A stretch of 64,000 bases of DNA from NCBI RefSeq assembly GCF_964204645.1, contig NC_134027.1, positions 17,942,560 to 18,006,559 of the forward strand. The letters run 5' to 3'. The notes below the pieces were generated by a model. It searched no databases. It saw only the letters and a program-made list of their open reading frames with translations, and was not told where the DNA came from. Below are positions 12,661-63,442 of this stretch, in pieces. The translations under genes were made by a program, and so were the position numbers. Within the stretch, counting starts at the first letter, position 1, and every line of letters starts with the position of its first letter. Source of the DNA: Tubulanus polymorphus. Lineage: Eukaryota; Animalia; Nemertea.

Positions 12661-12669
12661 GCTGATGAC

Positions 12670-18349: not shown

Positions 18350-18537
18350 CTTTCATTCAAGAGAAAAGCGGTTCAAAGCGCCCCATTTCAAAGCCGTACG
18401 CTATTGAATTACATCCGGGTTCACGTGGGTTCAACCGAGTCGACAGTAAGCGCCGCTAGCGGCAGGTGCGCGCATAGCCGGTAGCTCATTAACGAGTTGA
18501 AGAGAATATCAATTTTAATAAAAAATTTGATATTAAA

Positions 18538-28135: not shown

Positions 28136-28164
28136 TCAAATTTTAATAAAAATATGTATTATAA

Positions 28165-28518
28165 ATGGAGAGTAAACAAGCGCACAGTGAGAACAACAAA
28201 TCATTTCTAGATAGAATAAAAGATACTTCAAATGTCAAATCAGTAGATTATAAATTTAAGAAGTTAAAAGAATTAATAATCCATAAGAAATATCTAATTA
28301 CAAATATTGATACAGTTACTAACAAATATGGAGATAAATTAGTTATACACTTAGAATATGAAGGATTAAAAGGAAATACAAATAAATTCAGAACATATTT
28401 ACCAGATAGATTTCATAGATTATCAAGTGAAGATCTAGAAGAATTATGTTCTGGAGATTTCTATTTCGTATACAAAGGTAAGAATGAAAAAGGGCACCAT
28501 GAAATAGATTTCGAATAA
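28165..28518 (+). CDS. Polinton hypothetical protein (KYG..FLP..YxGKNExGHH family)
   Basis: Intact 117 aa with TAAATG start; homologous to 54065-54390 (minus). Confidence 0.7.
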   Translation: MESKQAHSENNKSFLDRIKDTSNVKSVDYKFKKLKELIIHKKYLITNIDTVTNKYGDKLVIHLEYEGLKGNTNKFRTYLPDRFHRLSSEDLEELCSGDFYFVYKGKNEKGHHEIDFE

Positions 28519-28535
28519 GAAAATATGTAAAATAA

Positions 28536-29294
28536 ATGGTAGAATTAAAAGAATACAGAATATTTGTTGATTCTAGAAAACTTACAAATTATAAATCACA
28601 TAATTTACTAGTTCAATTAGATAGAGAATTTAAGAATTGTGTTGATTTAAAATTAGTTAATATAAGTTTATGTAATTCTTTTCATAATATATCGAATAAA
28701 AGTCTTGATCATTTAGCTTTTAAAATTCATGTTAGAAATTTGAATAAATGGTTTCATCTTTATCTAAAATCAGGATTATATAATTTAGAAACATTGGCGC
28801 AAGAAATTAATAGAAGAGCTCGTTTAAAAATGGGTGCAGCTGCTAGATTTGAAATTAAATTTATCAAAAGTGATAGTTCGAATAAAATAAGAATAAAGTT
28901 AACTAATGAACAACATAGATTTCTAGTAAGAAAACCTTTAGCTAAACTGTTTGGAATTCTCCCGGATAGAGATTATTCAAGTATCGAAAGTTATACAAAT
29001 TTAATGACTTTTACACATTTTTATATTTATTGCAATTCAATCAATCCTACAAAAACATTTGAAGCAACTAAAGATACAATTTGTAATTCTAGTATATTAA
29101 ATATTTTACCATTAAAAAATGTCAAGCAATTTGGAACTCAAATAAATTATAATTCAACTGAATGTGATTTTAAACCTTGTATTCCACATTTCAATAATTT
29201 TAAATTAGAAATAAGAAATCATAATAATGGTTATTTAATTGATTTGAATAACTTTCCTGTGATATATGAATTAGTTATAAGATGTAGAGAGTAA
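28536..29294 (+). CDS. Minor capsid protein (penton), putative
   Basis: 252 aa; FVDSR, NSF.NI, GLYN, LAKLFG, YIYCN, LIDLNNFPVIYEL pattern typical of Polinton single jelly-roll proteins. Confidence 0.7.
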   Translation: MVELKEYRIFVDSRKLTNYKSHNLLVQLDREFKNCVDLKLVNISLCNSFHNISNKSLDHLAFKIHVRNLNKWFHLYLKSGLYNLETLAQEINRRARLKMGAAARFEIKFIKSDSSNKIRIKLTNEQHRFLVRKPLAKLFGILPDRDYSSIESYTNLMTFTHFYIYCNSINPTKTFEATKDTICNSSILNILPLKNVKQFGTQINYNSTECDFKPCIPHFNNFKLEIRNHNNGYLIDLNNFPVIYELVIRCRE

Positions 29295-29310
29295 TTTTTT
29301 CATTATATAA

Positions 29311-29660
29311 ATGAATATAACTGTTGGACCGAGTATATGTTTTGGGTTTGATTTTAAACATGAGAAAGAAATGAAATTTAACATTAATGATGTAATTACA
29401 CATATTAGAAATATTGCATTTTCTAATGAAACAACATTTGAGTATGAAACAACAATAGATAAAGAAACTTTAAATGTAGAAAAGATTACTAATGTCATTA
29501 GAGAATCTTTAAGATTTTATGAATTAGATGAAGATTTTATCATCGATGATATTAAAAAAATAATAATTGAAATACAAATGAAACTAGTAATGAAATAAAT
29601 GTTGAACTAATCATCACTAAGATAACGAAATATTTTGAAGATGGTAATTTTTTTGATAAA
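29311..29660 (+). pseudogene. Polinton hypothetical protein
   Basis: Homologous to 46907-47236; frameshift near 29570. Confidence 0.6.
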
Positions 29661-29663
29661 TAA

Positions 29664-29885
29664 ATGAGTGATAATAAGTGGATAATAACTGGATTATCTA
29701 ATGGAGCATTACTATCAGTTGGAACTGTTGGTTATTCAATGGTATTAAAAAAAGTATTTAAAATGGGAAGTGTTAATGTTGATAGATTTGATATAAATGA
29801 TATTTTAAAATTAACATTAGCAGTTACTTTATCTAATTTAACTATTGATTATTTGGAAAAACAAAAATATATTCCTCCCATATAA
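29664..29885 (+). CDS. Small hydrophobic Polinton protein
   Basis: 73 aa, TAAATG start; homologue at 47240. Confidence 0.7.
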   Translation: MSDNKWIITGLSNGALLSVGTVGYSMVLKKVFKMGSVNVDRFDINDILKLTLAVTLSNLTIDYLEKQKYIPPI

Positions 29886-29909
29886 ATGCGTAATTATTTT
29901 ACTAAATAA

Positions 29910-30332
29910 ATGGCTTCTGCTATTATAACTATTATAGGATCGGCAATTGTTAACGCTTTAGCATTTACTGGTGGTGGTTATTTATTTAAGCATATTGATA
30001 AAAATAGTTCATTAGGAGAACAAAGAAGACATAACTTAGCATTAGAGAAATACAATAAAGCAGCAGAAGAATACAGAGAAAAACGACAAAACTATATGGA
30101 TTATATTAACAAGGAATTATATGATCAGAAGATTTCACGTAGAGATTTTCAATCAGTTGATGATGGAATGAGTTTATATAACGCGGTAACCAATAAAGAA
30201 AAATTACATCTACATAAACCTACAATATCAGATTATTATACCCCAAGTAATAAACAGAAGAAATATGAAATAATATGGATTTTAGGCGGAACTGTTATTG
30301 TTATATTTGTTGCTTATAAGTTTACTAATTAG
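29910..30332 (+). CDS. Polinton membrane protein (NALAFTGG..RHNLALE)
   Basis: N- and C-terminal hydrophobic segments; conserved at 47464. Confidence 0.75.
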   Translation: MASAIITIIGSAIVNALAFTGGGYLFKHIDKNSSLGEQRRHNLALEKYNKAAEEYREKRQNYMDYINKELYDQKISRRDFQSVDDGMSLYNAVTNKEKLHLHKPTISDYYTPSNKQKKYEIIWILGGTVIVIFVAYKFTN

Positions 30333-30352
30333 TAATTTTTTTTGCTAAATAA

Positions 30353-30778
30353 ATGGATGATAATATTGATATTATTCCTCATGATATAAATAAAACTAAA
30401 TTAAAAATATATTTAAAAAAACAAATATTAGATTTTGAAAATGATTTAAAAGTTAAAAAGAAAACATATTTAAAAAGAAAAATTATATATTATTTTATTA
30501 TCAGTGGTTCGGTTACAATTAGTTCTGTAATAACATTTCTAGCAATATTCAGTCCATTAACACCTTTAGCTATATCAATTGGCGTGTTAGGTTTAAGTTC
30601 AAGTGTTTTAACTGGTATAAGTTCAAAATTAAATATAAAAAGTAATAAAGAAAAAATTAAAACTAATATAAAAGAAATTAATAAATTGAAAAATACACTA
30701 GATTATATAATTAGTTTAAATGGTCATATAACAGTTGAAGAACAAGATAAATTATTAAAAGAATTAGTTAATTATTAA
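30353..30778 (+). CDS. Polinton two-TM coiled-coil protein
   Basis: Central hydrophobic hairpin; conserved at 47901. Confidence 0.75.
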   Translation: MDDNIDIIPHDINKTKLKIYLKKQILDFENDLKVKKKTYLKRKIIYYFIISGSVTISSVITFLAIFSPLTPLAISIGVLGLSSSVLTGISSKLNIKSNKEKIKTNIKEINKLKNTLDYIISLNGHITVEEQDKLLKELVNY

Positions 30779-30801
30779 TTTTTTAATTAATTTTTTAATA
30801 A

Positions 30802-32190
30802 ATGGTAGAAAGTTTTCCAAAAGCTTTCCAATATAATAAATCAATTAAATATAATATTCCAGCAATAGATTTTAATAAAGATATTACATATAGAAATGAA
30901 GTTTTAGATTCATTAACTAATTTAGAAATTTATGTTACTGAAACTAATAATTTTAATGCAAAGATGGAAAATATATTTCATGTATATTTAATTAATTTTA
31001 AAAAATTGAAAGATGAAAAACAATGGTTATTAAAATCTAATATGAAGTATTGGCAGAACCAATTAAATTTTGCTGTTTATTGTGCAACAACAGGTTGTGG
31101 AATTAGTTGGAATGATCATTTGAATAATTCTAAATATAAATTAATTCAAAGTTTATTTAGATTTCATACATACTTTCAAATCAGAATAATATTAAATGAA
31201 TTAGAGTGTGCTTTACCAGGATCTAGATATTTTAAAGAATTAGATAATAACATCAATTTATCAAAGTTTTATAAAATTTGCAATGAATTTAATATAGGTA
31301 TAAATAATTCTGATTTTAGAACAAAAATTGGAACAATAAGATCACTTCCTTGCCCTAAAAAGATTGCAGAATATTGTGCACTTCCCATACCATCTAATAG
31401 TTTTTATAATATCTATGATAATAAATTAGGTTATGGTAAAATAGAAACAAAGGATTTAGAAATATTAAATTTCAATAAATTACCGACATTTTATGATCAT
31501 TTAAAACAAGAAAACAATAATGGTTGGGTTTATTTTATTTTAGAAAATAGTGAAGGTTTTACTTAATCAGGTATAGAAAGAATAAATCAATCTATTAGAA
31601 CTAATTTGATATGTATTTTAGGTGCACAAGTTGAAACAAGATCCCCAATAATTGGAAATTTAAATACATCATTTGATACACAGAAACAATTCAAAGTATT
31701 ATTTGAAGATTCCATTCATAATGATAAAAATAGATCGATTCCAGAAAACATTGTAAGATATCAAAATTATTTAGATAAATCACATATTAGATTAAATTAT
31801 TGTATAGGCCCTAATCTATTTATTATTTCTAATGATTTAGTATTAAAGATGGGAAACATAATTGGTTATAATAATCTAATTAAAACTGCAACAATAAATA
31901 ATTCATTAGGATTAAATGATATAAATAAAAAGATTATTACTGCTCCAAAATTAATGGAAGGTGAAAAAAATAAAAAACATATTCAATCAACAGAAACTAA
32001 AACTAATAATATTAAATTAAATAATGATTCTAAAATAAAAGATTACAATACAACAGAAAATATTAGAACTGATAATATTCAACATGAAATAATTAAACTA
32101 AATGATGATAATAAATCCCATGAAAATACTAAATTAGCTTTAACTTGTATAGGAATTGTAATCGGAGGAATATTATATTTTAAATTTTAA
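30802..32190 (+). pseudogene. Conserved Polinton protein (WQNQLNFAVYCATTGCG) with C-terminal TM
   Basis: Two in-frame ORFs split by a TAA at 31564 (AAA in copy 2). Confidence 0.75.
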
Positions 32191-32319
32191 TTTTTTATTA
32201 TGTAAATGGCAGAAGGTGGAGAACATTTTCCATTGGAAAACATGGGAAATAATAATGAAGGATATATTGATGATGAACCGCAACCTAATTTGAAATATAG
32301 CTGCAAAGCAGCGATAACG

Positions 32320-37995: not shown

Positions 37996-39294
37996 GTCGA
38001 ATTCGAAAGTGGTTGTCGTCGTATTGTTATTTCTAGAGACCAGCAGTATGTTTTGCTACTGTTTCTGAATGGCCTTGACATGATGGAAATATATTACTCC
38101 TAAATAGGTTACACATCTGGATCACAGCACCTCACTTGCCGCAGTGCGTAATTTTGACTGCATAGTAATGCTAATACATAAACTTTTTTACTACTTGACT
38201 CAAAGCTTGACGCGAATCATCTGAACAGTACTGCGTTTGAAAACGAATAGAAAATGTTTGCGAGAAGCACCTGCAAATAAGTTATGATAAGATTAAATCT
38301 ATGGTTAATCGATGCTTAAAAAAACAATTAAATCACAGGCAAGATGACTAACAACCGTCTTTCAACCAATCAGCGCGATGCCAATTAATTAAATCATTAA
38401 ACGCATTAGGCTCCTTATATTTGTAATCATTTGTCGTTCTTTAAACTTGGCCACTTTTGTTTCAGAAAACCGCGTACTAGACCAGTGGTCACCAAGGCAT
38501 TAAAAAAGTTTTGAAAATTCGATGGTAACGATTTGTCCGTCAAAAAACTGTTTCGTTAATATTTCAAGTTTTTTTAAACTCTTGTACAGAATTCACTATA
38601 TGAAAAGTGTTCATAGGAATTGAAATTCGGTGTGATATCAGTCACCTGTTACCCCTTTTTCATTGTCAGTTCTTTATTGCACTATCATGCGCTCTTCTAA
38701 AATAGAAAAGAACATGTGTGTTTCGTTATAAACAAGGTTAGATTCCAAACGCACATGAAATATCACACAATATACACATCTAGCATTTTCTCTAACTAGG
38801 CCCTTTCCAAATGGCAATTGTTTAGTTTTTTAACGGCCGACATTCAGAAGCACCTAAAAACCAGTGCTAGCGCTTGAGATTTTCAGTGTAGGTCACATCT
38901 CACATCGACTCGGCTCGCAGTCGGTTCGTTTAATGGGAACACATCTGGTTGACACTAGTTTCACAGTTGACGAAATCAGAAAACTTTTTTCAAATGCCTT
39001 TGATAACATCTTAAACATAGTATTCTTCTTGATTACATTTCGTTGATTCCATAGATATGTTTTTATGAAAATTGCTCCAGTTATAACGGATTCAAACATA
39101 CATGTGAAATCAATATTTTCAAAATATTCAATTTTCTCCGCTTTTGAAGAAATTCTGACACAATATCATCTCCACTCGACACATGATTTTACTTCGGCGC
39201 CTTTAAGGGAGTGTCCCTTAAAGTTGAGTTCTTACTTAGTCAAACAAGGAGATATGCCTGATTCCTTTTTAAAATTTAGATTTCGACAGATATC

Positions 39295-39670
39295 AGTAAT
39301 TGGGAAAGTGGGCTTTCATACGAGAGGACGAGACACCACTCATCACCACAAGTAATAATTCAATTGAGTATGAGACACCACTCATCACAGCTAGGCTCTA
39401 GTGAGAACGGACGATTGCTCTGTGGTACACATATACAGTGAGTGCGCGTAACAACAGCTGCGCGTGGATAGATCGATACAGTGAGTCTCTACTGAGAACG
39501 GTTATTAACGCGTGTGCTATTACTGTAGTACAGTGATTGCGTGTCAACTGTGCCCAGATAAATAGATGCTGTGAGGCTTGGGTGAGAACGGTTAATAGCG
39601 TGTTTGTTATATACAGGGGGAAGTAATCCCCACTCATCACCACAAGTAATTTTTGTTCCTAATAAATGGG
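39295..39670 (+). repeat. Left TIR region (interrupted)
   Basis: 39295-39357 and 39630-39670 both match the reverse complement of parts of 54385-54475. Confidence 0.85.
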
Positions 39671-42600
39671 GGAGAATGAACAGCAGCCAGAAAACAATAA
39701 TGTTAATAAAACCAATATTATTGCCAATATTGTAAAAAAATACGTCGATACATCTAATAAAACACGACATGAAAAAACTGCAAATCATATAAAAAATGTA
39801 ATAGATTTTGAAACTCCAGAAAATTCCAATGAAAGAAAAGAAAGATTAGAAAATATGAATGTGGACGAAATAAAATGTGAAGTTTGTAATGAATTTAAAG
39901 TAAAAAGGAATTATAATATAATCTCGAATCACAAAAACACCATCAAAATTTGAGTAATAATGTTTTAGGAAAAGATTATTTCGATGATAAACCTCAAAAA
40001 GTAAAAAAACCAACTTCAAAAACTAAATCCATTTCAAATAAACCTTACATGGAAAATGTTAGAAATTATATTGATACACTAGAAATAAAAGATACAATTG
40101 AAATTTTAGAAACATTACATAGTAAAATTGGTCCTGCAGCTATCATATTTAGATTTTTTAAAGGTACAACAATAGAAGATTATAGTATATTTAATGAAAT
40201 AATAAAAAAATACTAGATTTGATAACAGATGTTGAATATCCAAAAATTAGTATCTCTGGGAAAGTAAGTTTTATAAAGTCAGAAGAAAAAATGGATTATA
40301 ATATTCAAACACACTCTGAAGAAATAATTTGAAAAACACAAATAAAAGAGAAATTAGAAAAAATATTTAATGAATTTAAACGTCATATTGAAGAAAGATA
40401 TTTTGAGGGTTCTGGCTTAACATTGAATGAAATTATATATTTAGATTTAAATGTTTACAATACAAAAAGGAATAAAACATCAAAAAGTAATAAAATGTTT
40501 AAAAATGATTCAAAATTTACAACAGAAAAGGATATTAAAGCATCATCTTATATTAAATTACCATTTACAACAAAAGCAGTAATAAATGTTCAAAATGAAG
40601 ATAATAAATGTTTTCTTTGGTCAATTATTAGTTGTTTACACCCAACAGAAGATATGACGCATAGTTTTAGAATAACAAATTACCGGAAATATGAAACATT
40701 ATATAAAATTGATCAATATCCAGTAACTATAAAAATGATTCCTAAAATAGAAAAAGTTAATAATTTAAAAATAAATGTATTTGAATTAATGCAATTACCA
40801 AAGACAAAAGGTGAAAATATTAAAAATCATACATTGAAAGCTTTATATTTAACAGAATATTATGATGATGAAAATGCTATAGATTTGTTATATTACAAAA
40901 AAGATGAAAATGAACATTATATGTGGTTAAAACAAATTGATTTATTCTTTAGAACAGAAAGTGATCATCATAAAATTTATCCATGTAGAAAATATTTATC
41001 TAAATTTATGACTGAGAATACATTATTAAAACATAAAGAATTATGTGATAATAAAGATTTTGTAAATTAATAATGCCAACAGAAAAAGATTATACATTGA
41101 AATTTACAAATCATAAATTTAAGAATATTGTTCCATTTGTAATTTATGGGGATTTTGAATCGTTGAATAAAGAATTAACTGATCAAGATAGAAAAGAAAT
41201 ATATAACAAAAAGCAATTATTAAAATCAATGGATAAAGGAAATGAATTAAATGAAGACACAACACAAGACCCGCCAATTATAAATACAATTAAAAAAGTT
41301 CATCAAAGAGCTGCTGCTTATGGAATTTATATAAAATCAAATTATCCCGAATTATATGAAAGTCAATATATTTCTTTTAGAGGTGAAGGTGTAGTTAATG
41401 ATTTTTGTAACAAATTGATTGAATTAGAAAGTGATTTTGCAAAATTATTAAACAAAAATAAAAGAATATTTATGACAATAGAAGATGAAATTGATTTTAA
41501 TTATGCAACTCATTGTTGTTATTGTGAAAAACGTTTTTATTCATTTGATAAAAAAGTTAGAGATCATGATCATTTAAATTCAAAATATCGTGGAGCTGCT
41601 CATGAAGATTGCAATTTACAAGCTAAGAAAGTTAATTTCGTACCAATATTATTTCATAATTTATCAGGCTATGATACCCATCTATTTATAAAAAAATTAT
41701 CGGGAAAATTGGGCGCAATTAATCAAGAAATAGAAAAATATAATGCTATGAATGGTGTAAATGTAAGAAAATATGATTTTAAACTATTAGCTAAAACATC
41801 TGAAAATTATATTTCATTTCAATTTGGTTGCATTAGATTTTTAGATTCTTATAGATTTCTAGCAAGTTCAGTAGATAATTTATCAAAAAGTTTAGTTGAT
41901 AATGATTTTGTTATAACTCGATATTATTATCCAAATGAACAAGATTTTAAATTATTGAGATATAAAGGCGCAATTCCTTATTCATTTTATAAAACACAAT
42001 GATTTTAATGTAACAGAATTATTAAAAGATCAATTTTATGATCAATTAAAAGAGGAGTATGTGAAAGACGAAGTGTTTAATAGAACATTAAATATTTGGA
42101 ACCATTTTAAGATGAAAAATCATGGTGAATTAGTTGATTTATATTTAAAATCAGATGTTATGATATTGGCTGACATATTTGAAAAATTTAGAGAAGTTAA
42201 TTTGAATCATTTTAATGTTGATCCTTGTTATTGCTACTCTAGTCCTGGTTTAACCTGGCAATGTGGTTTAAAATATACAAATGTAGAATTAGATTTATTG
42301 AAAGAACCAGATATGGTTTTATTATTTGAAAAATCAATTAGAGGTGGAATTAGTGGTGTTATGGGAGATAGATATTTTAAAGCAAATGATGAATATAAAT
42401 TATTATATATTGACGCCAATAATTTATATGGTTGGGCAATGATGCAACCTCAACCATATAAAAATTTTATATTAACAGAAGTTGAAAATGATGATAAAAC
42501 TAATTGGGAAAGCGCAATTACGAGTTTAGAAGATGAAGCACCAATTGGTTATTTCTTTGTAGTTGATTTAGAATATCCTGAAAATATAAAGTTTAAAACA

Positions 42601-44720
42601 AGAAACTTACCTTATTGCCCAGAACATTTAACTGTAGATGATAGTTATTTAAGTGAATACCAGAAGAAAATAAAACCGAAAGATCATGTTTTTACAGAAA
42701 AATTAATTCTTACTCAAAATAATAAATACAATTATATTGTTCATTATAGAATGTTAAAATTTTATCTAAAACAAGGAATGAAATTAAAGAAAGTACATAG
42801 ATATATTGAATTTAATCAATCGAAGTGGTTAGAAAAATATATAGATTTTAATACTCAACAGAGAACCATATCAAAAACAGATTTTGAAAAAGATTTCTTC
42901 AAATTAATGAACAATAGTTTTTATGGTAAAACATGTGAAAATATTAGAAATAGAAATGATATTGAATTAGTAAATAATTCTGAAAGATTAAGACATTTAC
43001 AATCAAGTCCTAGACATTTAGGAAATAAAAGATTTGAAGATTATTTAACAGCAGTTAAATTGAAAAGAACGTCAATGAAATTTAATAAACCTACATTCAT
43101 TGGTTCAACTGTTTTAGAAGTATCAAAATTATTAATGTATGATTTTTATTATAATGTTTTACAACCACTTTTTGGGGAAAAGCATATTGAAACATTATAT
43201 TTTGATTCTGTAACAGCTGACACCCCAATATTATTAAAATGTAATGATAAAATATTGATAAGAAGAATTTCAGAAATAATTCCAAAACAAAATGAATGTT
43301 TATTTCATATGGTGAAAAAGAATTAATACAAATAAATGGATTAATGGATGTTTGGACAAGAAATGGATGGAAAAAATTAAAGAATATTATTAGGCATAAA
43401 ACAAATAAGAAAATCTATAGAGTTAGAACTAAATTAAGGTTTGTAGATGTTACAGAAGATCATAGTTTAATTAAACGAAATGGCGATGAAATAAAACCAA
43501 CTGATATAAAAATTGGAGATGAATTATTACATAAAAGATTTTTCCAAAGAATGAATCATATGTCATTTGATGAAATTATTGATAATATTTATAATATAGA
43601 ACCCGAAACATTAGAAGAAAAAGAATATTTTATCAAAGGATTTTTCATGGGTGATAGTTCAGCAGGTGTGTATGTTTGGGGTAATAAATATTGTTGGTAT
43701 TTATGCAATCAAGACTTAAAATTATTAGAAAGAATTAAGAAATTCTGTGAAGAAGTTTATCCAAATAAAACATTTAAAATCATGGATGTTATGAAATCAA
43801 CAGCAGTTTATAGAATACTTGTAAATAATCCTAAAGATTTTGCTATAAAATATAATGACGAATTCTATATTCATGCAATAGTGAAAAGTAATACTTCAAC
43901 TAAAGAAAAGATAGTTCCAGATTATGTATTGAATGCAAAAAATAATTTAAGAAAATGGTTCTTCATTGGATTCTACGCAGCAGATGGTACTAAAAGTTTC
44001 AAAAATCGCAAAACAATATCTTTAGCTCAAAAAGGAAAAGTTGCTATATCAGGATTGAATATATTATGCAATTCATTAGGTTTTAATATGAATATTGGAT
44101 TGATTAAATCTAAACCAAATTGCTTTAATTTAAGCCATGTAGAAAATGAGTTAACAGAAGAAGTTAAAGATTTATTTGAAATATATAACCCAACAGATTA
44201 TGTTTATGATTTATCAACTGAAGATGGTACATTTAACTGTGGATTTCCATTAATAGCCAAAAATACTGACGCCTACATACTAAAAATCAAGACAAATGAC
44301 ATAACAAAAGACTTAAAAACATTAAAACATCATTTTGATTTTAGCAATTATCCCAAAGATCATGAACTATTTAGCGATGATAATAAAAAGATTCCTGGTA
44401 AGTTTAAAGATGAATTAGGGGGTGATGAAATGATTGAATTTGTTGGGATAAGAAGTAAAATGTATAGTTATAGAACAAAAGATCATGAAGATATAAAGTT
44501 AAAAGGAATAACAAAACATGTGGTTGATAAACATATAGAATTTCAAGATTATATAAAGTGTTTATATAACTCAATTGTAATGAAACACAAAATGAATTGT
44601 TTAAGATCAGAAGATCACGAGATGTACATTAATGAAGTTGAAAAAACTAGTTTGAATCCATTCGATGATAAAAGGCATATTTTAGATGATGGTATAAAAA
44701 CATTACCTTATGGCCATTAA
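39666..44720 (+). pseudogene. polB: pPolB, intein-containing allele
   Basis: N-terminal Zn fingers, NEDNKCFLW..HYMW, IYGDFES, RDHDH, FHNLSGYD, YIDANNLYGWAM, KLMNNSFYGKT, YFD|intein|TDA, DDKR; several stops and frameshifts. Confidence 0.95.
43207..44264 (+). mobile_element. Intein with LAGLIDADG homing endonuclease in pPolB motif C
   Basis: Block A SVTADTPILL; block B VDVTEDHSL; GFFMGD and GFYAADG; block F YVYDLSTEDGTF; end LIAKN then +1 Thr; absent from copy 1; 1058 nt with one frameshift near 43296. Confidence 0.95.
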
Positions 44721-46048
44721 AACATAAAATCAATATCATCATACTCGAAATCACTATTGGCTTCTTCATTTAAATTTAATTGTTCTTGTATAATTTGTTT
44801 AGGTTCTTCTTCCATTTCATTTTTCTTATTTAAATAACGTGTTATATTGTGCCACATTTCATCTCGCTCTCTTTGTTTCTTTTTGTTTGTTAATTCATCA
44901 AATGGAATTATAATATCTATATTTAAATAATTTACAATCTTATTTAAAAAGAATTCATAATTAATTGAATCTGTTATTCTATTTTCCAAATGATACATTA
45001 ATATTTGTTTGAATATTTTTTTTATATTTTCCATATCTTCTTCTGTTAATTTAGGTTTTTCATAATAATCGTTAAATAATAAATATAAATACATTTTCTT
45101 TTGTTTTGTGTTAAATGTTGATGGAATAATTGTTTTTATAATATCTTTTTTAGTTATTTCACCATTTTTATTTTCTACCATTTTCATTTTTTCAAGCCAT
45201 TGCATATATTCTGGTGTATGATCTTCTATAGAAAATATTTCAAAAATTTCATCTAGATAATTTAATTTTGGATCTATGAGAAAATTTCTAGTTTTTTCTT
45301 CACCCCATAAATTCTTTCGCCATCCACAATCAACACAAAATAACACAGTACCTTCTTGTCTTAAGGTCGCGTAATTACATTGTGGGCATTTTTGTTTATA
45401 ATTTATTGGTAATAGATCTTCATTAAGCTCTTGGTATTTTCATACGTTTTCTTTATGTTTTATTATTCTATTATGTAGATTTGAATTACTTGTTGTAATA
45501 ATCAATTTACAATATTTACAATAATATGTTTTTCTTGTTAATTCATTATATTGTTTTTCTAACTTTTCAACTGTTTCTTTATTATCTGGTAACGTTTTCT
45601 CATATTTTATTTTTTCTAATATATTATTTTTTCTTTCATTGAATTCAGTTTCAAATTTATTAGAAATTTTATCTATATGTGCTTTACGAAATTGATGATT
45701 CTCCCAATCTTCTATATTTTCAGGGCTATATTTTATTCGACAAGGCTTACAGAAATGATCTTTTATATTATCCTTATCATAGAATAAGAAAGGTCTTTTC
45801 CAAATAACATCAGGTTCAACTTCCACAGAATTACTATTACTTTCGTTACTATCAACATTAGCCGTTGCGCCATTAATTTTACACTTCTCTGAATGTTTTT
45901 TAACATAATTTCTTGAGAATAATTTATTACATTTTGGACAGTTTAGTTTAGGGGGTTTATAATTTTCATCATGTTTTTTCATATGTCGAGCCATATTACT
46001 TTTTCTCAGAAGTTCACCACAAATTTCGCATGGTATCTTCTCATCCAT
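44717..46048 (-). pseudogene. Multi-zinc-finger protein fused to a poxvirus VLTF3-like late transcription factor domain
   Basis: ORFs 45440-46048 and 44717-45346 are in frame across one TGA; four Zn-finger motifs, then CPQC..CVDCG, then SINYEFFLNKI..KKKQRERDEMWHNI. Confidence 0.7.
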
Positions 46049-46116
46049 TTATTAAGGAAAAATTTTATTAAAATTAATTTTTAGTGATGAGCGGTAATTT
46101 TTTTATGTTATAAATA

Positions 46117-46874
46117 ATGGTAGAATTAAAAGAATACAGAATATTTGTAGATTCTAGAAAACTTACAAATTATAAATCTCATAATTTACTAGAACAATTA
46201 GATAGAGAATTTAAAAATTGTGTAGATTTAAAATTAGTTAATATAAGTTTATGTAATTCTTTTTATAATATAACGGATAAAACTATTGAAGATAATACTT
46301 TTTTAATTCATATTGGAAATGTAGATAAATGGTTTCATATAATTTTAAAACCAGGATTATATAATTTAGAAACATTAGCTCAAGAAATTAATCGAAGAGC
46401 ACGGTTGAAAATTAGAAGAGATGATAAATTTTTAATTAGATTTATAAAAAGTGATAGCACAAATAAAATTAAAATACAGGTATATGATGAAAGTCAACAT
46501 GCATTTATGGTAAAAAAACCATTAGCTAAATTGCTAGGATTTGCACCAGATACTGTTATAGGAAACGTAGATGGTAATTCAAATATAATACCTTTTACGC
46601 ACTTTTATATTTTTTGCAATTTAATCGATCCTACAAAAACATTTGAAGGAACTAAAGATACAATTTGTAATTCTAGTATATTAAATATTTTACCGCTAAA
46701 AAATGTTAAAAAATTTGGACTGGAATAAATTATAATTTAACAGAATGTGATTTTAAACCATGCATTCCTGAATTTAATAATTTTAGATTAGAAATAAGAA
46801 ATCACAATGGATATTTAATTGATTTGAATAACTTTCCTGTGATATATGAATTAGTTTTAAGATGTAGAGAGTAA
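46117..46874 (+). pseudogene. Minor capsid protein (penton), frameshifted
   Basis: Homologue of 28536-29294; frameshift near 46720. Confidence 0.7.
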
Positions 46875-46906
46875 TTTTTTCATTATATAACTGTTGGGCC
46901 GAGCAT

Positions 46907-47236
46907 ATGTTTGGATTTGATTTTAAACGTGAGAAAGAAATGAAAATTAACATTAATGATGTAATTACACATATCAAAAATATTACATTTTCTAATGAAA
47001 CATCATTTGAGTATGAAACAACAATAGATAAAGAAACTTTAAATGTAGAAAAGATTACTAATAAAATAAAGATTAGAGAATCTTTATTTTATGAATTAGA
47101 TGAAGATTTTATCATCGATGATATTAAAAAAATAATAATTGAAATATATACAAATGAAACTAGTAATGAAATAAATGTTGAATTAATCATCACTAAGATA
47201 ACTAAATATTTTGAAGATAGTAATTTTTTTGATTAA
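46907..47236 (+). CDS. Polinton hypothetical protein
   Basis: Homologue of 29311; native start deleted. Confidence 0.55.
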   Translation: MFGFDFKREKEMKININDVITHIKNITFSNETSFEYETTIDKETLNVEKITNKIKIRESLFYELDEDFIIDDIKKIIIEIYTNETSNEINVELIITKITKYFEDSNFFD

Positions 47237-47239
47237 TAA

Positions 47240-47440
47240 ATGAGTGATAATAAGTGGATAATAACTGGATTATATAATGGCGCCTTACTATCAGTTGGAA
47301 CTGTTGGTTATTCAATGGTATTAAAAAAAGTATTTAAAATGGGAAGTGTTAATGTTGATAGATTTGATATAAATGAAATTTTCAAAATTAACATTAGCAG
47401 TTACTTTATCTAATTTAACTATTGATTATTTGGATATAAA
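47240..47440 (+). pseudogene. Small hydrophobic Polinton protein
   Basis: Homologue of 29664-29885 with a frameshift and 3' deletion. Confidence 0.65.
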
Positions 47441-47463
47441 TACATAATTATTTTACTAAATAA

Positions 47464-47880
47464 ATGGCTTCTGCAGTTATAACTATTATAGGATCGGCAA
47501 TTGTTAACGCTTTAGCATTTACTGGTGGTGGTTATTTATTCAAGCATATTGATGGTTCATTAACAGAACAAAAAAGACATAACTTAGCATTAGAGAAATA
47601 TAATAAAGCAGCAGAAGAATGTAGAGAAAAGAGACAAAACTATATGGATTACATCAATAAAGAATTATATGACCAGAAGATTTCACATAGAGATTTTCAA
47701 TCAGTTGATGATGCAATGAGTTTATATAACGCGGTAACCAAGAATGAAAAATCACATCTATACAAACCTAAATTATCAGATTATTATACCCCAAGTAAAG
47801 AACAACAGAAATATGAAATAATGTGGATTTTAGGTGGAACTGTTATTGTTATATTTGTAGCGTATAAGTTTACTAATTAG
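47464..47880 (+). CDS. Polinton membrane protein (NALAFTGG)
   Basis: Intact homologue of 29910. Confidence 0.75.
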   Translation: MASAVITIIGSAIVNALAFTGGGYLFKHIDGSLTEQKRHNLALEKYNKAAEECREKRQNYMDYINKELYDQKISHRDFQSVDDAMSLYNAVTKNEKSHLYKPKLSDYYTPSKEQQKYEIMWILGGTVIVIFVAYKFTN

Positions 47881-47900
47881 TAATTTTTTTTGCTAAATAA

Positions 47901-48293
47901 ATGGATGATAATATTGATATTATTCCTCATGGTATAAATAAAACTAAATTAAAAATATATTTAGAAAAACAAATATTAGAATTTGAAAGTGACTTAAAGA
48001 TAAAAAGGAAAAAATATTTAAAAAGTAAAATTATATATTATTTGATTATTAGTGGTTCGGTTACAATTAGTTCTGTAATAACATTTCTAGCAATATTTTC
48101 ACCATTAACACCTTTGGCTATATCAATTGGTGTGTTAGGATTAAGTTCAAGTGTTTTAACTGGTATAAGTCCAAAATTAAATATAAAAAGTAATAAAGAA
48201 AAAATTAAAACTAATATAAAAGAAATTAATAAATTAAAGAATACACTAGATTATATAATAAGTTTAAATGGTCATATAACAGTTGAAGAATAA
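47901..48293 (+). CDS. Polinton two-TM protein
   Basis: Homologue of 30353; CAA>TAA near the end. Confidence 0.7.
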   Translation: MDDNIDIIPHGINKTKLKIYLEKQILEFESDLKIKRKKYLKSKIIYYLIISGSVTISSVITFLAIFSPLTPLAISIGVLGLSSSVLTGISPKLNIKSNKEKIKTNIKEINKLKNTLDYIISLNGHITVEE

Positions 48294-48353
48294 GATAAAT
48301 TATTAAAAGAATTAATAAATTATTTATTTTTTTATTTTTTTTTTTTTTTATAA

Positions 48354-49649
48354 ATGGTAGATAGTTTTCCAAAAGCTTTCCAATATAATAAATCAATTAA
48401 ATATAATATTCCAGCAGTAGATTTTAATAAAGATATTTCATATAGAAATGAAGTTTTAAATTCATTAATTGATTTATATATTTATGTTACTGAAAGCAAT
48501 AATTTTCATGTTAAGATGGAAAATATATTCAATGTTTATGAAATTAATTTTAAAAATTTAAATGAGGCAAAACAATGGTTATTAAAATCTAATATGAAGT
48601 ATTGGCAGAACCAATTAAATTTTGCTGTTTATTGCGCTACAACAGGATGCGGAATAAGTTGGAATGATCATTTAAATAAACCAAGTTTACCATTGATGTT
48701 ATCACTTTTTAGATTTCATACATATTTTCAAATAAAATTAATATTAGATGAATTAGAATGTCCTTTACCAGGTTCAAAATTTTTCTAAGTTTTATAAAAT
48801 ATGTAATGAATTTAATATTAATTCAAATAAAGATTTTAGAGCAAAAATTGGAACAATGGGTGGATAAGGAATATTGTATACTAAAGAATTTCGAAAAATA
48901 ATGACAAATTCAGATATAAGAACACTAAATTGGAATGAATTACCAAAATATTATAATAATATACAACAACAAAACAATAATGGTTGGGTTAATTTCATTT
49001 TAGAAAATAGTGAAGGTTTTACTAAAGCTGGTATATAAAGAATAAATCAATCAATTAGAACTTATTTGATAGTATTTTAGGCGCGCAAGTTGAAACAAGA
49101 TCCCCAATAATTGGAAATGATAACACTTCATTCGATGCGCAGAAACAATTCAAAGTTTTATTTGAAGATTCCATTCATAATGATAAAAATAGATCGATTC
49201 CAGAAAACATTGTAAGATATCAAAATTATTTAGATAAATCACATATTAGATCAAATTATTGTATAGGCCCTAATCTATTTATTATTTCTAATGATTTAGT
49301 ATTAAAGATGGGAAACATAATTGGTTATAATAATCTAATTAAAACTGCAACAATAAATAATTCATTTGGATTAAATGATATAAATAAAAAGATTATCACT
49401 GCTCCAAAATTAATGGAAGGTGAAAAAAATAAAAAACATATTCAATCAACAGAAACTAAAACTAAGAATATTAAATTAAATAATGATTCTAAAATAAAAG
49501 ATTACAATACGACAGAAAATATTAAAACTGATAATATTCAACATGATATAATTAAAACTGATAATGATAATAAATTCCATGAAAATACTAAATTAGCTTT
49601 AACTTGTACAGGAATTGTTATAGGAGGAATATTATATTTTAAATTTTAA
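48354..49649 (+). pseudogene. Conserved Polinton protein (CATTGCG)
   Basis: Homologue of 30802-32190 with a deletion, stops and frameshifts. Confidence 0.75.
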
Positions 49650-49665
49650 TTTTTTTATTATATGA

Positions 49666-50259
49666 ATGAATGTAGAAGGTGGGGAAGATTATGAAATGGA
49701 AGGCATGGGAAATAATGATGATGCCAATACTAACGATGATGATTATATGACTGCTGATACTAATATTGATAATGATAATGATATAACATATAATTCTAAT
49801 TTAGCAGAAAGTGGTTCTAAAGCCCCATCAACTGAGGATTATATTAGAAGAACTAGATCGAGAATAAATCCTGAAAATGAAAATCAAGGTTTATCGAGTC
49901 GAGATTTAGAAAATAAAGAATTTGTATATAAGTTCCAACGTGCATTTGAAAGATCTGGATATAATATAAATTACAGAGGTGCCAGATTTTTAGTAGAAGA
50001 TTTAAAATATTTAGATGGTGAATATTATTATAAATTGAAAGATGATTATTATATTAATATCACTAATCAAAGGACAAGACTACCTAAAATATTAGCGGAA
50101 TCAACTTTGAGTGATTTAGGTCTAGATAAAATTAAGAGAATAAGTATTAGTAATGAAATAACTGATGTTACACAAGAGAGAGATAATAATATAAGAGTAT
50201 TTAGTCAAAGAATTGATGACTTATTTAAAATAATCGATGATAATCCAGAAACAGAAACA
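49666..50259 (+). pseudogene. N-terminus of a large acidic/coiled-coil Polinton protein
   Basis: Homologous to 59270-59787; ends at a deletion junction. Confidence 0.7.
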
Positions 50260-51020
50260 ACTTTGAATTGATAAATAATAATGCGCCTTTATATAAATAT
50301 CCAATTCAAGAAGATATTATATTTGAAATAACATTTGCTCCTGTTAATGAAATTGTATTATCTAGCGTTGTTAAAGATATGGGTTATAAATTATCGATTG
50401 TATGTTTAGAATATGACACAGTAACTGATGAAAATATTGCTAGCACAATTCAAACTCAATACAATCAAGGATTTTCATTATTATATGATTATATTGATAA
50501 ATTTAAAACTGTAACTATTAATGCAAATGATGAAATAATTAATGAGAATATTAACTTCCCAAGAAGATCTATTAAAGGTATATTAATATTTTTTACCATT
50601 GCAACATATTCTAATGGTGCAATAAAGGTAGATAATTATTATAATCCTGAAATAACAAAAGTAGAAATAACTATCGAAGGAATAGCAAATAAAATATTTT
50701 GTCAAGGAATGAGAATGATAGATCAGTGGCCAGAAATTAGAAAACATTTTATGAATGAAAAAGTAAAATCATTTGAAAATTGTAATATTAATCAAATTGA
50801 TTATTATACCGGCAATAAATATGCATTATGGTTAGATTTTAGAACAACAGAGGATAATTCATTACATGGTTCTGGGAAAAAACTACAGAACACTAAAGAT
50901 GGAATACAATTATTTATGAAAAAGAAAAAAGTAAGCTTAAATTTTAAAGTGCACATTTATATTATATCTGACGCATAATTAAATATTGTAAATTCACAAT
51001 TAGATAGTATTCAATATTAG
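50260..51020 (+). pseudogene. Major capsid protein, C-terminal part
   Basis: Matches 61298-62060 of the copy 3 MCP. Confidence 0.75.
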
Positions 51021-51050
51021 AAATATAAAGTTAAAATTAACGATATATAA

Positions 51051-52184
51051 ATGGGTGGTAAAAAAACTCCTAATACTAAAGAACAATATTTAAGAAATTT
51101 ATATTACAACCCTGAGAGTTCGGTTGCTTATTCTTCTACTAAAAATATATGGCGTCAAGTAAAACAAGATAAATTAGATAAGATAATCCCACAAAATTTA
51201 GTTAAATATAAAGATATAAATGAATTTATATTAGAACAATCAACATACACAACACATAAAAAAAATTGTTAGAAAATATAAAACTCGTAAAACTATGGTA
51301 AGTTATGTAGATCAACAGTGGCAAGGAGATTTAATTGATATGAAAAATGTTAAGAAAGATAATGATGATTATTGGTGGATATTGAATATAATTGATATTT
51401 TTAGTCGTTATGTATTATGTTTCCCACTTTATAGAAAAGATGCTGTACAAACATCAAATGTTTTAAGAAAATTTCTTTCGGATGATAAACTAAAACCAGA
51501 AAAAATACAATTTGATGATGGAAAAGAGTTTGATAATTCACTTGTTCATGAACTCTTAGATAATCATAATATTAAATATTTTTCAACAAAATCGGATAAA
51601 AAGCAGCAGTTGTTGAACGATTTAATAGAACATTAAGAACAAGAATGTGGAAATATTTTACAGCAAATAGTACTTTTAAATGGATTGATGTTTTACCAAA
51701 ATTGATAAAAGGTTATGATAATTCTTATCATTCTTCTATTGGAATGAAACCTATTGATGCTATAAAACCTGAAAATGCTGAAATTGTTTGGAATAATTTG
51801 TATGGGGCATTTCTTGTAGATGATTTTGGTGAACCTAAATTTAAAGTTGGTCAAAATGTTAGAATTTCTAAGTATAAAAAGATATTTGACAAAGGATACG
51901 ATCGAAATTTTACTAGAGAAATATATAAAATAAAAAAGGTTATAACAACAAAACCGTATGTCTATAAATTAGAAGATTTAGATGGTGAAGAAGTTGATGG
52001 CTACTTTTACGAAGAAGTATTGAGTTTAACTACTGAAAATCTAGAACATAAAATTGAATATAAAATTGAAAAAGTATTAAAAACAAAAATTATTAAAAGA
52101 AAATAATATTCTTTAGTAAAATGGGTTGGATGGCCAGATAAATTTAATGAATGGATATTATCAAGTAAAATTAAAAATATATAA
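51051..52184 (+). pseudogene. Retroviral-like (RVE) integrase with C-terminal chromodomain
   Basis: WQGDLIDM, IDIFSRY, DDGKEF, VERFNRT, YHSSIGMKP, FKVGQNVRI, LVKWVGWPDKFNEW; two frameshifts and one stop. Confidence 0.93.
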
Positions 52185-52793
52185 ATGAATAAGGAATTAT
52201 TCGTATTTGAGCCTCATAATATGTTAATTTCTGGTGTAACAAATTGTGGAAAACCTTATTTTATATTAAATTTATTAGAAACTGTTTATGAAAACTATTT
52301 TGATAATATAGTATTATTTTGTCCAACATATGAATTTAATCAAACTTATGATAGAAATATTACTAGAAATAATAAATTTATTATATTAGATCCTAAAACA
52401 GTAAAAGAAAATTTAGATAATTGTATTAAAATAGCGATTGATATTTATAAAGGATCAAATACATTATTCATTATAGATGATTGTGCTAATCTACATGATT
52501 CAAAAGTTAGAGAGAGTGAGTTATGCTATTTAGCTTTTTCTGGCAGACATTTTGGGATAACAACATGGGTTTTAAATCAAAAATATAATTCAATTGTTAA
52601 AGACTTTAGAGAAAACATTAGATTTCTAGTTTTATTCTACAATAAAGATAGAAAATCGATGAAAAATGCACTTGAGGAAAATGATATTATTCCACATGAT
52701 TTACATAATGAATATATGGATAAGTTGAAAAATATTAAAAGATCAAAATTACTATTTAGATTACAACACCCATTTAAATATGAATTTATTTAA
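52185..52793 (+). CDS. A32-like DNA packaging ATPase
   Basis: Walker A GVTNCGKP (GKT in copy 3), Walker B FIIDD, SGRH motif. Confidence 0.9.
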   Translation: MNKELFVFEPHNMLISGVTNCGKPYFILNLLETVYENYFDNIVLFCPTYEFNQTYDRNITRNNKFIILDPKTVKENLDNCIKIAIDIYKGSNTLFIIDDCANLHDSKVRESELCYLAFSGRHFGITTWVLNQKYNSIVKDFRENIRFLVLFYNKDRKSMKNALEENDIIPHDLHNEYMDKLKNIKRSKLLFRLQHPFKYEFI

Positions 52794-52976
52794 ATTCAAC
52801 TAGCTTGTTAATCTAGTTGAATTCTAGTTACATTCTAGTTGAATTCTAGTTATTAGTAGTTGAAACAAAAATCAAATAGATTTAACAAGAAATAAACAAA
52901 AACAACAATATTTCAACTAGCTTGTTAATCTAGTTGAATTCTAGCCCTAGTTACATTCTAGTTGAATTCTAGTTGC
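52794..52976. repeat. Intergenic CTAGTTGAATT / CTAGTTACATT repeats in two duplicated blocks
   Basis: TTCAACTAGCTTGTTAATCTAGTTGAATTCTAG at ~52795 and ~52912. Confidence 0.85.
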
Positions 52977-53006
52977 AACATCACAACTAATTTTTTTGTT
53001 ATATAA

Positions 53007-53520
53007 ATGGTAGGTGAAAAGAAAATAAAATCTAAAAATGGTGATGTTCCAATTGAAAAAAACTTTAGATGATATAGGAATAACAGAAAACAAATTAATT
53101 CCAGATGATGGTGCTTTAAATAATGTTACAACAAATAATAATTATGAATATTATCTTTACTGTAAACATCAATTAGAAATATTAATAGCATCTGGAAAAT
53201 GTAACAATTTTGTCGGTAAAAATTTAACTTATAATGAATTAGATACAATGAAATCAGATGAAATTATTAGATTATTTAAGATTCATGAAGCCGCGAGAAC
53301 AGCTAGAATTAATGACGCGATATCAGAAAATGTAGTAAAAGGTTATAGTAAATTATGTAATTATATACTACCAATTGAAGATGAAAATAGATTATATTCC
53401 GATTTAAAAAATGATTATTTAGTTATGACTGAATTAAATAAATGGATTGGATATTTATCATTTCAATTAGGTGGATTTATGACATTATTATCAACTGGGT
53501 TATAACATTTTCAAATATTG
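53007..53520 (+). pseudogene. Polinton hypothetical protein
   Basis: TAAATG start at 53007, frameshift into ORF 53038-53505. Confidence 0.6.
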
Positions 53521-53544
53521 AAAGTAAAAATATTTCTATAATAA

Positions 53545-53913
53545 ATGAGCGAGGTGGAAGAAGTGAAGGAATTAACTGTGAAGAAAAAACCGAGATCACA
53601 GAAACAAATTGAATGGTCTCGGCAATTAGGAAGTAAATCACAAGAATATAAAAAAGCTGTAAAAGAAAAAATAAGTAATAAAAATGTTAATAAAAATAGT
53701 GAAAATATTGTTATTTCTACTCCTTCTAATGATAGAATATTTGATAAATGTCTATATTTTACAGTTGGATTTGTAATTGTATTCATTTTGATTGGGTGTA
53801 ATTGGTATAAGAAATCAAATAAAATTCATGATATTAATAATTCTGAAACAACTGCTATCAAAAATGAAAATAATTCTGAAATTCCAAAATTGACAATTAA
53901 AAAAATGGATTAA
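53545..53913 (+). CDS. Polinton single-TM protein
   Basis: 122 aa, basic N-terminus, one hydrophobic helix, TAAATG start. Confidence 0.65.
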   Translation: MSEVEEVKELTVKKKPRSQKQIEWSRQLGSKSQEYKKAVKEKISNKNVNKNSENIVISTPSNDRIFDKCLYFTVGFVIVFILIGCNWYKKSNKIHDINNSETTAIKNENNSEIPKLTIKKMD

Positions 53914-54064
53914 TATTTTAGAAAAAAAGCAAAAAAAAATAATTTTTTCTAATTAATTGAATATCTCACTACTTTTGTCTATCTATGCGGAGCAATTAAA
54001 TTGTCCAGATAAGTCATTTCGGATTCTAGATATTCATTATTTTTATTAATTTATTTTTTTAAAT

Positions 54065-54390
54065 TTAATCAACAATTTCTAAATCATGATGGCCATCTTC
54101 ATTTTTTCCATGGTAGATTATTTTAAATCCTTCTAAATCTTTTAATTCCTCTGTACTCAATGAAACCCATTTATCAGGTAAAAATACTTTAAATTCTCGT
54201 GATGTACTAACATTACAGTAGCTTAAATTAGCTGATACTTTCTCTCCATATTTAGTTTTTATCTTTTCTAATTTCAATATTTTATGTTCAATTTCTTTTG
54301 TAACATCAACTAACTTTTTTATTTCAAATTGTTTTTTGCTGGTTTTATTCTGTTATTTATTGTTGCAAAGAATGCTTTTCTATCTCCCAT
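54065..54390 (-). pseudogene. Homologue of the 28165 protein, starting at the right TIR
   Basis: KTKYGEKV..FLPD..YHGKNEDGHH; ATG at 54390 in TAAATG, disrupted near the 5' end. Confidence 0.7.
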
Positions 54391-54475
54391 TTATAAGGAA
54401 AACAAATTACTTGTGGTGATGAGTGGTGTCTAGTCCTCTCGTCCTCTGGTATGAAAGCCCACTTTCCCAATTACT
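54385..54475 (-). repeat. Right TIR of Polinton copy 2
   Basis: Reverse complement of the left end; ends in ACT. Confidence 0.92.
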
Positions 54476-54939
54476 GATATCATCAAATTACTAGAAAGGG
54501 ACAGCAGCGTTCGGTCATCCACGAAAAATACCTAAAATGCAGTCCTAGGGTTATGGAAAAACAGGACACGAAACATACAGAAAAATCCTTTGTTTGGTTG
54601 ACTGAAATTATTATTGAACTCTTAAATAGCGACATTCAGAGAAACAAAAACATAAGAATATAATCTCGCCCACCCGTTAAAAAACATGACGTAATGATAG
54701 GAGGCCATGTGTCATCTTTAATTGAAATCACATTATATTCATTCTCATGCGAGGATGGGTCTCCAAATTCATAGGATTAGGAGAATAATGGTTTGAATGA
54801 TGAATACAACTGATAAAGCGCCAATTTCACTGATTCTTGCATATAAATGCTCAAAGGCGCTTTACAGTAATCGAGTTAACAGGTGCGTTTTTAGGAGTCT
54901 TTTAAATTTGAATTCAAATCGGGTGTTCATGACGACTAT

Positions 54940-60787: not shown

Positions 60788-60810
60788 TAATTAATTTTTT
60801 TGTTAAATAA

Positions 60811-62060: not shown

Positions 62061-62091
62061 ATTTTAACTTTAATAAAAATTTATATAATAA

Positions 62092-62937: not shown

Positions 62938-63344
62938 AGAATAAGTATAAAAATAAAACAACTATTGATGTAGAATCGGTAGAGCATTTGAATAAATTGT
63001 TGGGGTCTGATAATGAATTGGAGAGTGATGATGAAAGTGATTAAGATATTAATTATATTTAACTCAAATAATAATATTAGTTGAAAATTGTATAAAATAA
63101 TAGTAAATAAAAAGGGTGTTTTAGGTATTTAAGGTATCTAATACATATCTAATACAATCTAATACAATCTAATACATAAAATATCTTATTTTATAAACTT
63201 ATATTCATATGGAAATTGAAACCTAAGTAATAATAAATAACCTTTATTATTTTCAAACTTATTCATATATTAGTTGAAAAAATAAAAATAAATTGGTTGA
63301 AAATTGTATAAATAATATTTATTTAAAAAAGGGGTTTTAAGTAT

Positions 63345-63425: not shown

Positions 63426-63442
63426 CATAGGTATATAAATAG

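Follow-up and report, generated by a model that had tools for sequence, protein, structure and literature searches.

The interrupted polymerase of a defective Maverick

The window (the whole stretch of 64,000 nucleotides analyzed, within which all coordinates are positions) holds an integrated Maverick/Polinton element with recognizable ends and a partial gene set (Table 1). A protein-primed DNA polymerase (pPolB) and a retroviral-type (rve) integrase, both broken, were found together with a packaging ATPase of the Pox_A32 type, terminal inverted repeats (TIRs), and a 6-bp target-site duplication (TSD) in one 15,181-bp element, as had been expected from the original prediction of a Polinton carrier. 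The polymerase belongs to the type with an EndoVII-like domain, although the match to that domain was weak here (Pfam Endonuclease_7, E = 0.043). In tblastn searches, an intact relative (P0100) covered positions 40219-44717 piecewise, and the first ESM Atlas match of the extein was a PF03175 cluster (score, 0.96); the taxa among the ESM Atlas matches were mixed (Arthropoda, Mucoromycota) and were given no weight. By comparison with a further copy at 59286-62095, the front half of the capsid gene was absent from the intein-bearing Maverick; the ORF upstream in that further copy had a weak Capsid_N match (E = 0.011) and no PDB support. The gene at 46114..46728 is a candidate for the penton (minor capsid) gene. 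Adenovirus-type proteases are common in Mavericks without being universal; a Pfam scan of 18 ORFs of the element detected none, and the element has an internal deletion. Within the left TIR, a stretch of ~300 bp (39334-39629) had no partner at the right end and was skipped by many reads of genomic run X6 (79 and 54), which is described below.

Table 1. Features of the window, with positions, strands, and supporting matches
Feature	Position	Strand	Remarks
ISL2EU-like transposon remnant (HTH_Tnp_4 and YqaJ)	12009..13391	-	Pfam E = 4.6e-8 and 7e-15
THAP domain remnant	18074..18352	-	Pfam THAP E = 2.7e-11
Sister Maverick fragment, empty allele	24217..32276	+	Site between 27604 and 27605
TSD, left	39289..39294	.	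6 bp, GATATC
Maverick/Polinton	39295..54475	+	Integrated, 15,181 bp, defective
Left TIR core	39295..39333	+	38/39 bases match right end
Second TIR block	39630-39673		Pairs with 54383-54426
pPolB gene, EndoVII-like domain type	40219..44720	+	Several frames; N-extein to 43206, C-extein from 44265
LAGLIDADG intein in pPolB motif C (pol-c site)	43207..44264	+	Frameshifted near start in window copy
Candidate minor capsid (penton) gene	46114..46728	+	Pfam DUF5901 E = 0.024 only; sister copy without PDB match
Probable major capsid protein, C-terminal half	50244..50978	+	92% DNA identity to 61298-62095
Retroviral-type integrase	51051..52106	+	Three frames; Pfam rve E = 3.6e-11
Packaging ATPase	52185..52793	+	Pfam Pox_A32 E = 4.2e-12
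Right TIR	54383..54475	-	
TSD, right	54476..54481	.	6 bp, GATATC

Motif C of the polymerase is split by an insert of 1058 nt. The Asp codon before it ends at 43206, its Ser codon begins at 43207, and its terminal Asn codon ends at 44264 and is followed by Thr, giving the reading YFD/SVTADTP...IAKN/TDAY (slashes mark the junctions) at exactly the coordinates originally predicted. The length of the insert is not divisible by 3, and the frame breaks early in the intein, where two ORFs overlap (41959-43326 versus 43296-44720). Every motif that had been called at the outset was found, namely, Ser1, a block B TEDH, two LAGLIDADG motifs, a block F VYDL, and a terminal KN followed by a +1 Thr; the penultimate Lys is also present in the Mimivirus intein. 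The features of a class 1 intein (Ser1, block B TxxH, block F Asp, terminal Asn, and +1 Thr) are therefore present, as are those of a LAGLIDADG homing endonuclease (two motifs with a catalytic acidic residue). Intact relatives have the insert in frame, the window copy has it out of frame, and empty homologues exist. At one conserved position adjoining LAGLIDADG motif 1, the window intein differs from its intact relatives.

Domain and homologue searches were made with P0001, a 322-residue ORF piece of the window intein downstream of the frame break. It matched Pfam LAGLIDADG_3 above the cut-off (E = 1e-5; 26.1 bits; cut-off, 22.5) and, as a truncated piece, Pfam Intein_splicing below the cut-off (E = 3.5e-6; 27.3 bits; cut-off, 35.8). 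Among intact relatives, Intein_splicing was above the cut-off in P0101 and at the cut-off in P0372, and TIGR01445 was above the cut-off in P0004 and P0372. The top PDB sequence match of P0001 was the intein PI-PkoII (E = 2e-7). With a modest structural model (pLDDT 63), endonuclease-bearing inteins took all of Foldseek ranks 1-11, and I-DmoI and PI-SceI were present among the fold matches. These matches support the intein identity first proposed from motifs, and the insertion site is indeed pol-c, the same as that of Mimivirus (YGD/TDS). At the level of sequence, the insert at 43207-44264 was confirmed as a LAGLIDADG intein in motif C of a Maverick pPolB. A spliceosomal or group I intron was ruled out, as the insert is in frame and carries intein motifs in intact relatives and had no Rfam match.

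The window also holds an empty version of the same site. A sister Maverick fragment aligned with the intein-bearing copy at 77-79% identity on both sides (26723-27604 to 42340-43206 and 27603-28053 to 44263-44713), and its motif C reads YCDTDS with no insert. The right side of this fragment is cut off by a region (32679-36514) with a 31-bp minisatellite array (~2.2 kb) and a 155-bp tandem repeat. A third Maverick fragment (59206-64000) has the capsid front half and an opposite-strand ATPase, as well as an ORF containing a tandem repeat of 24 bp. At 8447-9355 lie two short inverted pairs (8447-8607 and 8939-9028), the second bounded by near-copies of the Maverick terminus; 8618-8704 matched the start of the sister Maverick, with a SAP domain next to it (Pfam E = 9.6e-9), and the region is probably another Maverick remnant. 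A 2.8-kb palindrome (18488-21268; arms of ~960 bp at 93% identity), of which 300 bp in each arm matched the zinc-finger start of the sister polymerase region (24184-24479), looks like a Maverick-derived hairpin element.

Related inteins in other Polinton polymerases

Searches with P0001 yielded 48 proteins of similar length and 343 longer ones; among the 120 listed of the longer proteins, 13 had pPolB exteins, 88 had giant-virus-type exteins, and 19 were not assignable. Intact, full-length pPolBs bearing an intein (P0100, P0101, P0106, P0112, P0113, and P0371) were recovered, and such proteins occurred in at least five further lineages, with inteins 41-62% identical to that of the window (62% for P0100). 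The cluster represented by P0101 has 136 members, the listed ones lying on contigs of up to 1 Mb, and intact versions of the pPolB with its intein were present in independent ENA and JGI assemblies. Ser1, TEDH, two LAGLIDADG motifs with Asp, the terminal Asn, and the +1 Thr were all kept in 29/29 complete pPolB inteins. Most relatives of the P0100 extein were empty: the best 120 of 5426 comprised 3 with a complete intein, 1 with a truncated intein, 111 with an uninterrupted motif, and 5 without a recognizable motif. The breadth of the family given here is a lower bound.

One member, P0106, was taken, from its appearance, for a putative representative of the other pPolB class of Jeong et al.; its intein was 46% identical, and its pPolB was barely alignable upstream of the site. 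The sole named close extein, P0227, is filed under Sulfurimonas, probably owing to a contaminated bin. Single-protein scans of IMG/VR and of prokaryote genomes gave no close relative, a metagenome scan gave two distant loci (25%), and three IMG/VR contigs with related pPolBs contained no intein match. A type II topoisomerase-like protein of 1897 aa (P0108) has several inteins, at least one of which is akin to the pol-c group (SVTGDTP...HN/TDGS); this suggests that pol-c-group inteins may have moved into a nonhomologous protein.

Homing versus inheritance among Mavericks

The history of the intein was compared with that of its carriers in a tree of N-terminal exteins (74 rows, thinned by similarity from 129, with 6 lacking the motif left out). 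On this tree, intein presence needed 10 changes, and strongly supported branches made 8 of these unavoidable. The filled copy of the window grouped with its empty sister and with the empty P0225, and monophyly of the 12 filled EndoVII-type exteins was rejected (p-AU, 3.9e-44). Two pairs of close relatives differed at the site itself. P0357 and P0360 have identical flanks, and the intein is their sole difference. Filled P0101 and empty P0349 matched at 788/790 residues from 10 to 800 residues upstream, compared with 6/10 on each side immediately beside the site; there, the flanks of P0101 resemble those of a neighboring lineage, while the empty P0346, P0347, P0349, and P0350 all read TDAMVL. 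Such site-centered divergence is the pattern expected if break repair had copied an intein together with its flanks.

Repeated loss might produce similar patchiness if the intein had entered pPolB a single time and been inherited since, with no continued homing. The tree of inteins is broadly congruent with that of exteins within the EndoVII-type pPolBs (identities of 41-62% versus 40-56%), and therefore much of the history may be co-descent; the broken state of the window copy and the small share of filled polymerases among the relatives counted above also suit an old passenger. Against it stand the retention of both endonuclease motifs in every complete pPolB intein, the concentration at the site of the divergence of P0101 from its empty near-twins, and the occurrence of the intein in a second putative pPolB class (P0106). 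Placement of the P0106 intein outside the other pPolB inteins was not rejected (p-AU, 0.23). We accord inheritance without further homing a minor, if real, share of the probability; an old entry followed by cycles of homing and loss appears to fit best.

Host context

The flanks of the element are gene-free repeats with 34-44% GC. Among 102 flank ORFs scanned, no host gene was recognizable, the domains found being of transposon or Maverick type only, and neither an Rfam family nor a tRNA was detected in the flanks with Rfam and ARAGORN. Two of the neighboring transposon remnants bear on the host. One encodes a THAP domain, and THAP domains are largely animal. The other is ISL2EU-like, and ISL2EU elements were recorded in 14 species of 836 eukaryote genomes, animals only, in the passages concerned of PMC4482050. 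From these remnants, the host is probably an animal.

The same intein, with the same mechanism, could instead reside in a protist or in some other nonanimal eukaryote whose genome is large and rich in repeats. Polinton-like elements abound in protists, inteins of endogenous viral polymerases are known in algae and a labyrinthulomycete (passages of PMC10710043), and flanks with no recognizable host gene, Rfam family, or tRNA would be compatible with such a host. The ISL2EU-like remnant, from a group that was animal-only in the survey portion of PMC4482050, argues the other way, as do the THAP remnant and the character of the flanks as gene-free repeats of the above GC content. A nonanimal host is thus unlikely in our estimation.

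Relation to giant-virus inteins

An unrooted intein tree of 86 rows (115 complete inteins minus 15 near-duplicates and minus 15 shorter than 300 residues, plus P0001) placed all 15 pPolB inteins in a single clade (support, 100/100). This clade sat inside clades of 40 rows (100/96) and 59 rows (98/96) of inteins from RNA-primed PolBs. The 70 rows labeled PolB were assigned by elimination; among the listed proteins that entered the tree, only two bear a giant-virus name and one bears the name of an Asgard archaeon. The 40-row clade holds Mimiviridae sp. ChoanoV1 (P0158), while Mimivirus (P0161; 39% identity) falls outside it, ruling out Mimivirus as the donor. Around the viral sister of the pPolB inteins, node supports were 48/10 and 76/19. 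In identity to the window intein, the listed matches ran from other Polinton pPolBs (41-62%) to giant-virus-type PolBs (up to 43%), and the ending GFPLIxxN was common to all pPolB inteins and one subgroup of giant-virus-type inteins. In IMG/VR, 513 stretches encoded a relative of the intein; among the best 80, 78 had a giant-virus-type extein and none had a pPolB extein, and 31 were named GVMAG.

The anticipated relation to viral pol-c inteins therefore holds, in that the relatives of P0001 mostly have giant-virus-type exteins and the pPolB inteins are nested among them. The resemblance to the Mimivirus PolB intein noted in the original prediction survives as kinship with giant-virus pol-c inteins, but not in the sense of Mimivirus (39%) being the nearest relative. 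Likewise, the proposed movement of an NCLDV-type intein into a pPolB agrees with giant-virus kinship, but a single recent event does not agree with the presence of the family in several Polinton lineages and the signs that movement went on. The simplest reading has the intein passing once from a giant virus into pPolB, with the nesting dependent on a root outside the pPolB branch.

Transfer in the opposite direction, from Polintons to giant viruses, or a third source (archaeal PolB or phage) for both, would draw on the lack of a root, on the lack of firm support for the sister group, and, for a third source, on the related inteins (34-36%) in archaeal-labeled MAG contigs L086 and L087. Both are nevertheless improbable: a single compact clade holds the pPolB inteins, set behind two nodes of strong support that consist of far more diverse RNA-primed PolB inteins, and the pPolB inteins share their C-terminal GFPLIxxN with one giant-virus-type subgroup.

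Two further observations concern the wider pol-c group. The pol-c intein type, at 34-36% identity to the window intein, also occurs in the PolB of contigs that are filed under archaeal (including Promethearchaeota) or Bacteroidales MAGs (L086, L087, L089, L090, and P0178); these contigs may be genuine, or they may be viral and mis-binned. Giant-virus-type PolB C-terminal halves of ~556 aa (P0030-P0043), which start just upstream of motif C and are possibly products of split polymerase genes, carry a mini-intein of ~220 aa without an endonuclease.

Integration and copy number from reads

Run X6 comprises raw genomic reads of organism A (1934 million bases) from a sample and study other than those of runs X1-X4. 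Run X5 (marine metagenome; share, 0.07), which gave short pieces only, was left out of the read evidence. In X6, 489 reads passed from the left flank straight into right-flank sequence, that is, across an empty host site; the Maverick was therefore inserted into a multi-copy host repeat and is chromosomal. X6 covered 30/30 bins of the compared stretch, intein bins included, at a likeness of at least 88%, with a coverage of ~160-260x in the intein bins versus ~270-290x in the adjoining extein bins. The Maverick is therefore present in tens to hundreds of copies, the figure depending on genome size. Most copies of the window's Maverick subfamily seem to carry the intein, and no intein-skipping joint was present among the 15 listed of 122 read joints in X6. 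At the two polymerase frame breaks, 141/176 and 238/311 X6 reads differed in length from the window, and so these breaks are confined to the window copy or to a minority of copies. In run X1, over 38000-47600, the element exceeded the host flank several-fold in summed contig depth, the opposite of X6 and as RNA or free element DNA would give; contig depth is a poor measure.

That the stretch is an assembly chimera or a viral contaminant is extremely improbable, for although no single read or contig spans the whole of it and the best-matching runs may be the window's own source, X6, from a separate sample and study, covers every bin, including the intein at the depth given above, and shows the empty host site, and intact versions occur in the independent ENA and JGI assemblies.

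Discussion

Our favored explanation, which we regard as probable, is that a homing-endonuclease intein occupies motif C of a Maverick pPolB in what is likely an animal genome, with a likely single origin from a giant virus and likely homing between Mavericks. In intein chemistry, the nucleophiles are Ser1 and the +1 Thr, and cyclization takes place at the terminal Asn (described in passages of PMC549080). In intact copies, the precursor would be translated whole, and Ser1, the block B His, the block F Asp, the terminal Asn, and the +1 Thr would together excise the intein. Excision is predicted to rejoin D-T-D, such that the polymerase would be functional only after splicing; this dependence would in turn shield the intein from deletion. 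The freed LAGLIDADG endonuclease may then cut an empty motif C in another Maverick, and repair off the filled copy would paste the intein, with a short stretch of flank, into the Maverick that had been cut. Targets would be at hand, given the tens to hundreds of Maverick copies predicted per nucleus. The copy in the window is presumably dead, as frameshifts in the polymerase and in the intein alike would leave neither protein made intact. For the first jump, a Polinton and a giant virus would have been together in one cell, and motif C (xxD/TDS) may have been the sole stretch common to both polymerase types.

The closest known system is the Mimivirus PolB intein, a pol-c allele at the site YGD/TDS (Ogata et al. 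2005, PMC549080). With this intein and related giant-virus PolB inteins, such as that of ChoanoV1, the window intein shares its motif C site, a length of ~350 aa, the SVTxDTP start, VTEDHSL, two LAGLIDADG motifs, the KN end, and the +1 Thr, at 38-43% identity. The host protein is different: the Mimivirus intein resides in the RNA-primed PolB of a giant virus, whereas the intein described here resides in the protein-primed polymerase of a 15-kb integrating element and, unlike the former, is inherited in chromosomes at high copy. The carrier shares with other Maverick/Polinton elements (polintoviruses) a pPolB, an rve integrase, a packaging ATPase, a probable capsid gene, TIRs, and a 6-bp TSD, and differs from usual Mavericks in the intein of its pPolB, in being a broken copy, and in having no protease among the 18 ORFs scanned.

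Klebsormidium, Tetrabaena, and Hondaea are described as having inteins in DNA polymerases of endogenous viral origin in passages of Gallot-Lavallee et al. (2023, PMC10710043). In those cases, as here, a viral intein was brought into a nuclear genome within an integrated viral polymerase gene. As far as those passages go, however, the hosts are algae and a protist and the proteins are viral-like DNA polymerases rather than Polinton pPolBs, in contrast to the multi-copy Maverick family found here, with filled and empty alleles and a host that is probably an animal. The intein of Chilo iridescent virus, an insect iridovirus, likewise meets animal cells by way of a DNA virus; according to the part of PMC549080 concerned, it is of the glutamine type and belongs to a nonintegrated virus, whereas the Maverick intein is of the asparagine type and chromosomal.

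HNH and VSR endonuclease domains inserted in Polinton pPolBs are the nearest parallel among Polintons themselves (excerpts of Jeong et al. 2023, 10.1101/2023.08.22.554363, and Krupovic et al. 2024, PMC11071308), and in the latter, such domains are suggested to stem from intein invasions. In those excerpts they are described as nuclease domains only, whereas here a full predicted splicing domain with a LAGLIDADG endonuclease lies in the active site; the words LAGLIDADG, Hint, and homing do not occur in the text of Jeong et al. that was covered. No report of a Hint/LAGLIDADG intein in a pPolB or Maverick was found in the full-text literature searched, nor in the relevant passages of PMC12220804, PMC5784728, PMC7765530, PMC11131425, PMC3671162, and PMC5718144. 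Within that literature, the original supposition that such an intein had not been described for animal Polintons stands.

The intein allele is a known one, whereas the type of host protein is new and the type of host genome, that of an animal, is probably new as well. Animal genomes have, to our knowledge, been described as free of inteins. That description would need qualifying if animal chromosomes hold a heritable intein family at high copy, albeit one carried by an endogenous viral element rather than by a gene of the host. The finding adds protein-primed polymerases to the proteins in which inteins reside and gives substance to the intein invasion of Polinton pPolBs that is suggested in part of PMC11071308. 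The intein is also a marker for whether Polintons meet or depend on giant viruses, because its transfer needs co-residence in one cell, and with near-twins available in both filled and empty form, homing can be tested directly in a eukaryotic nucleus. The family may, in addition, yield inteins and meganucleases adapted to animal cells.

A broader proposal, for and against which we see the chances as even, is that giant-virus-derived inteins are actively homing among Mavericks in animal germlines, in several host species and both pPolB classes. If true, animal nuclei would harbor a naturally occurring protein-splicing gene drive, and the inteins would record at the molecular level that animal Polintons, in the manner of virophages, have replicated in cells shared with giant viruses of the Imitervirales type.
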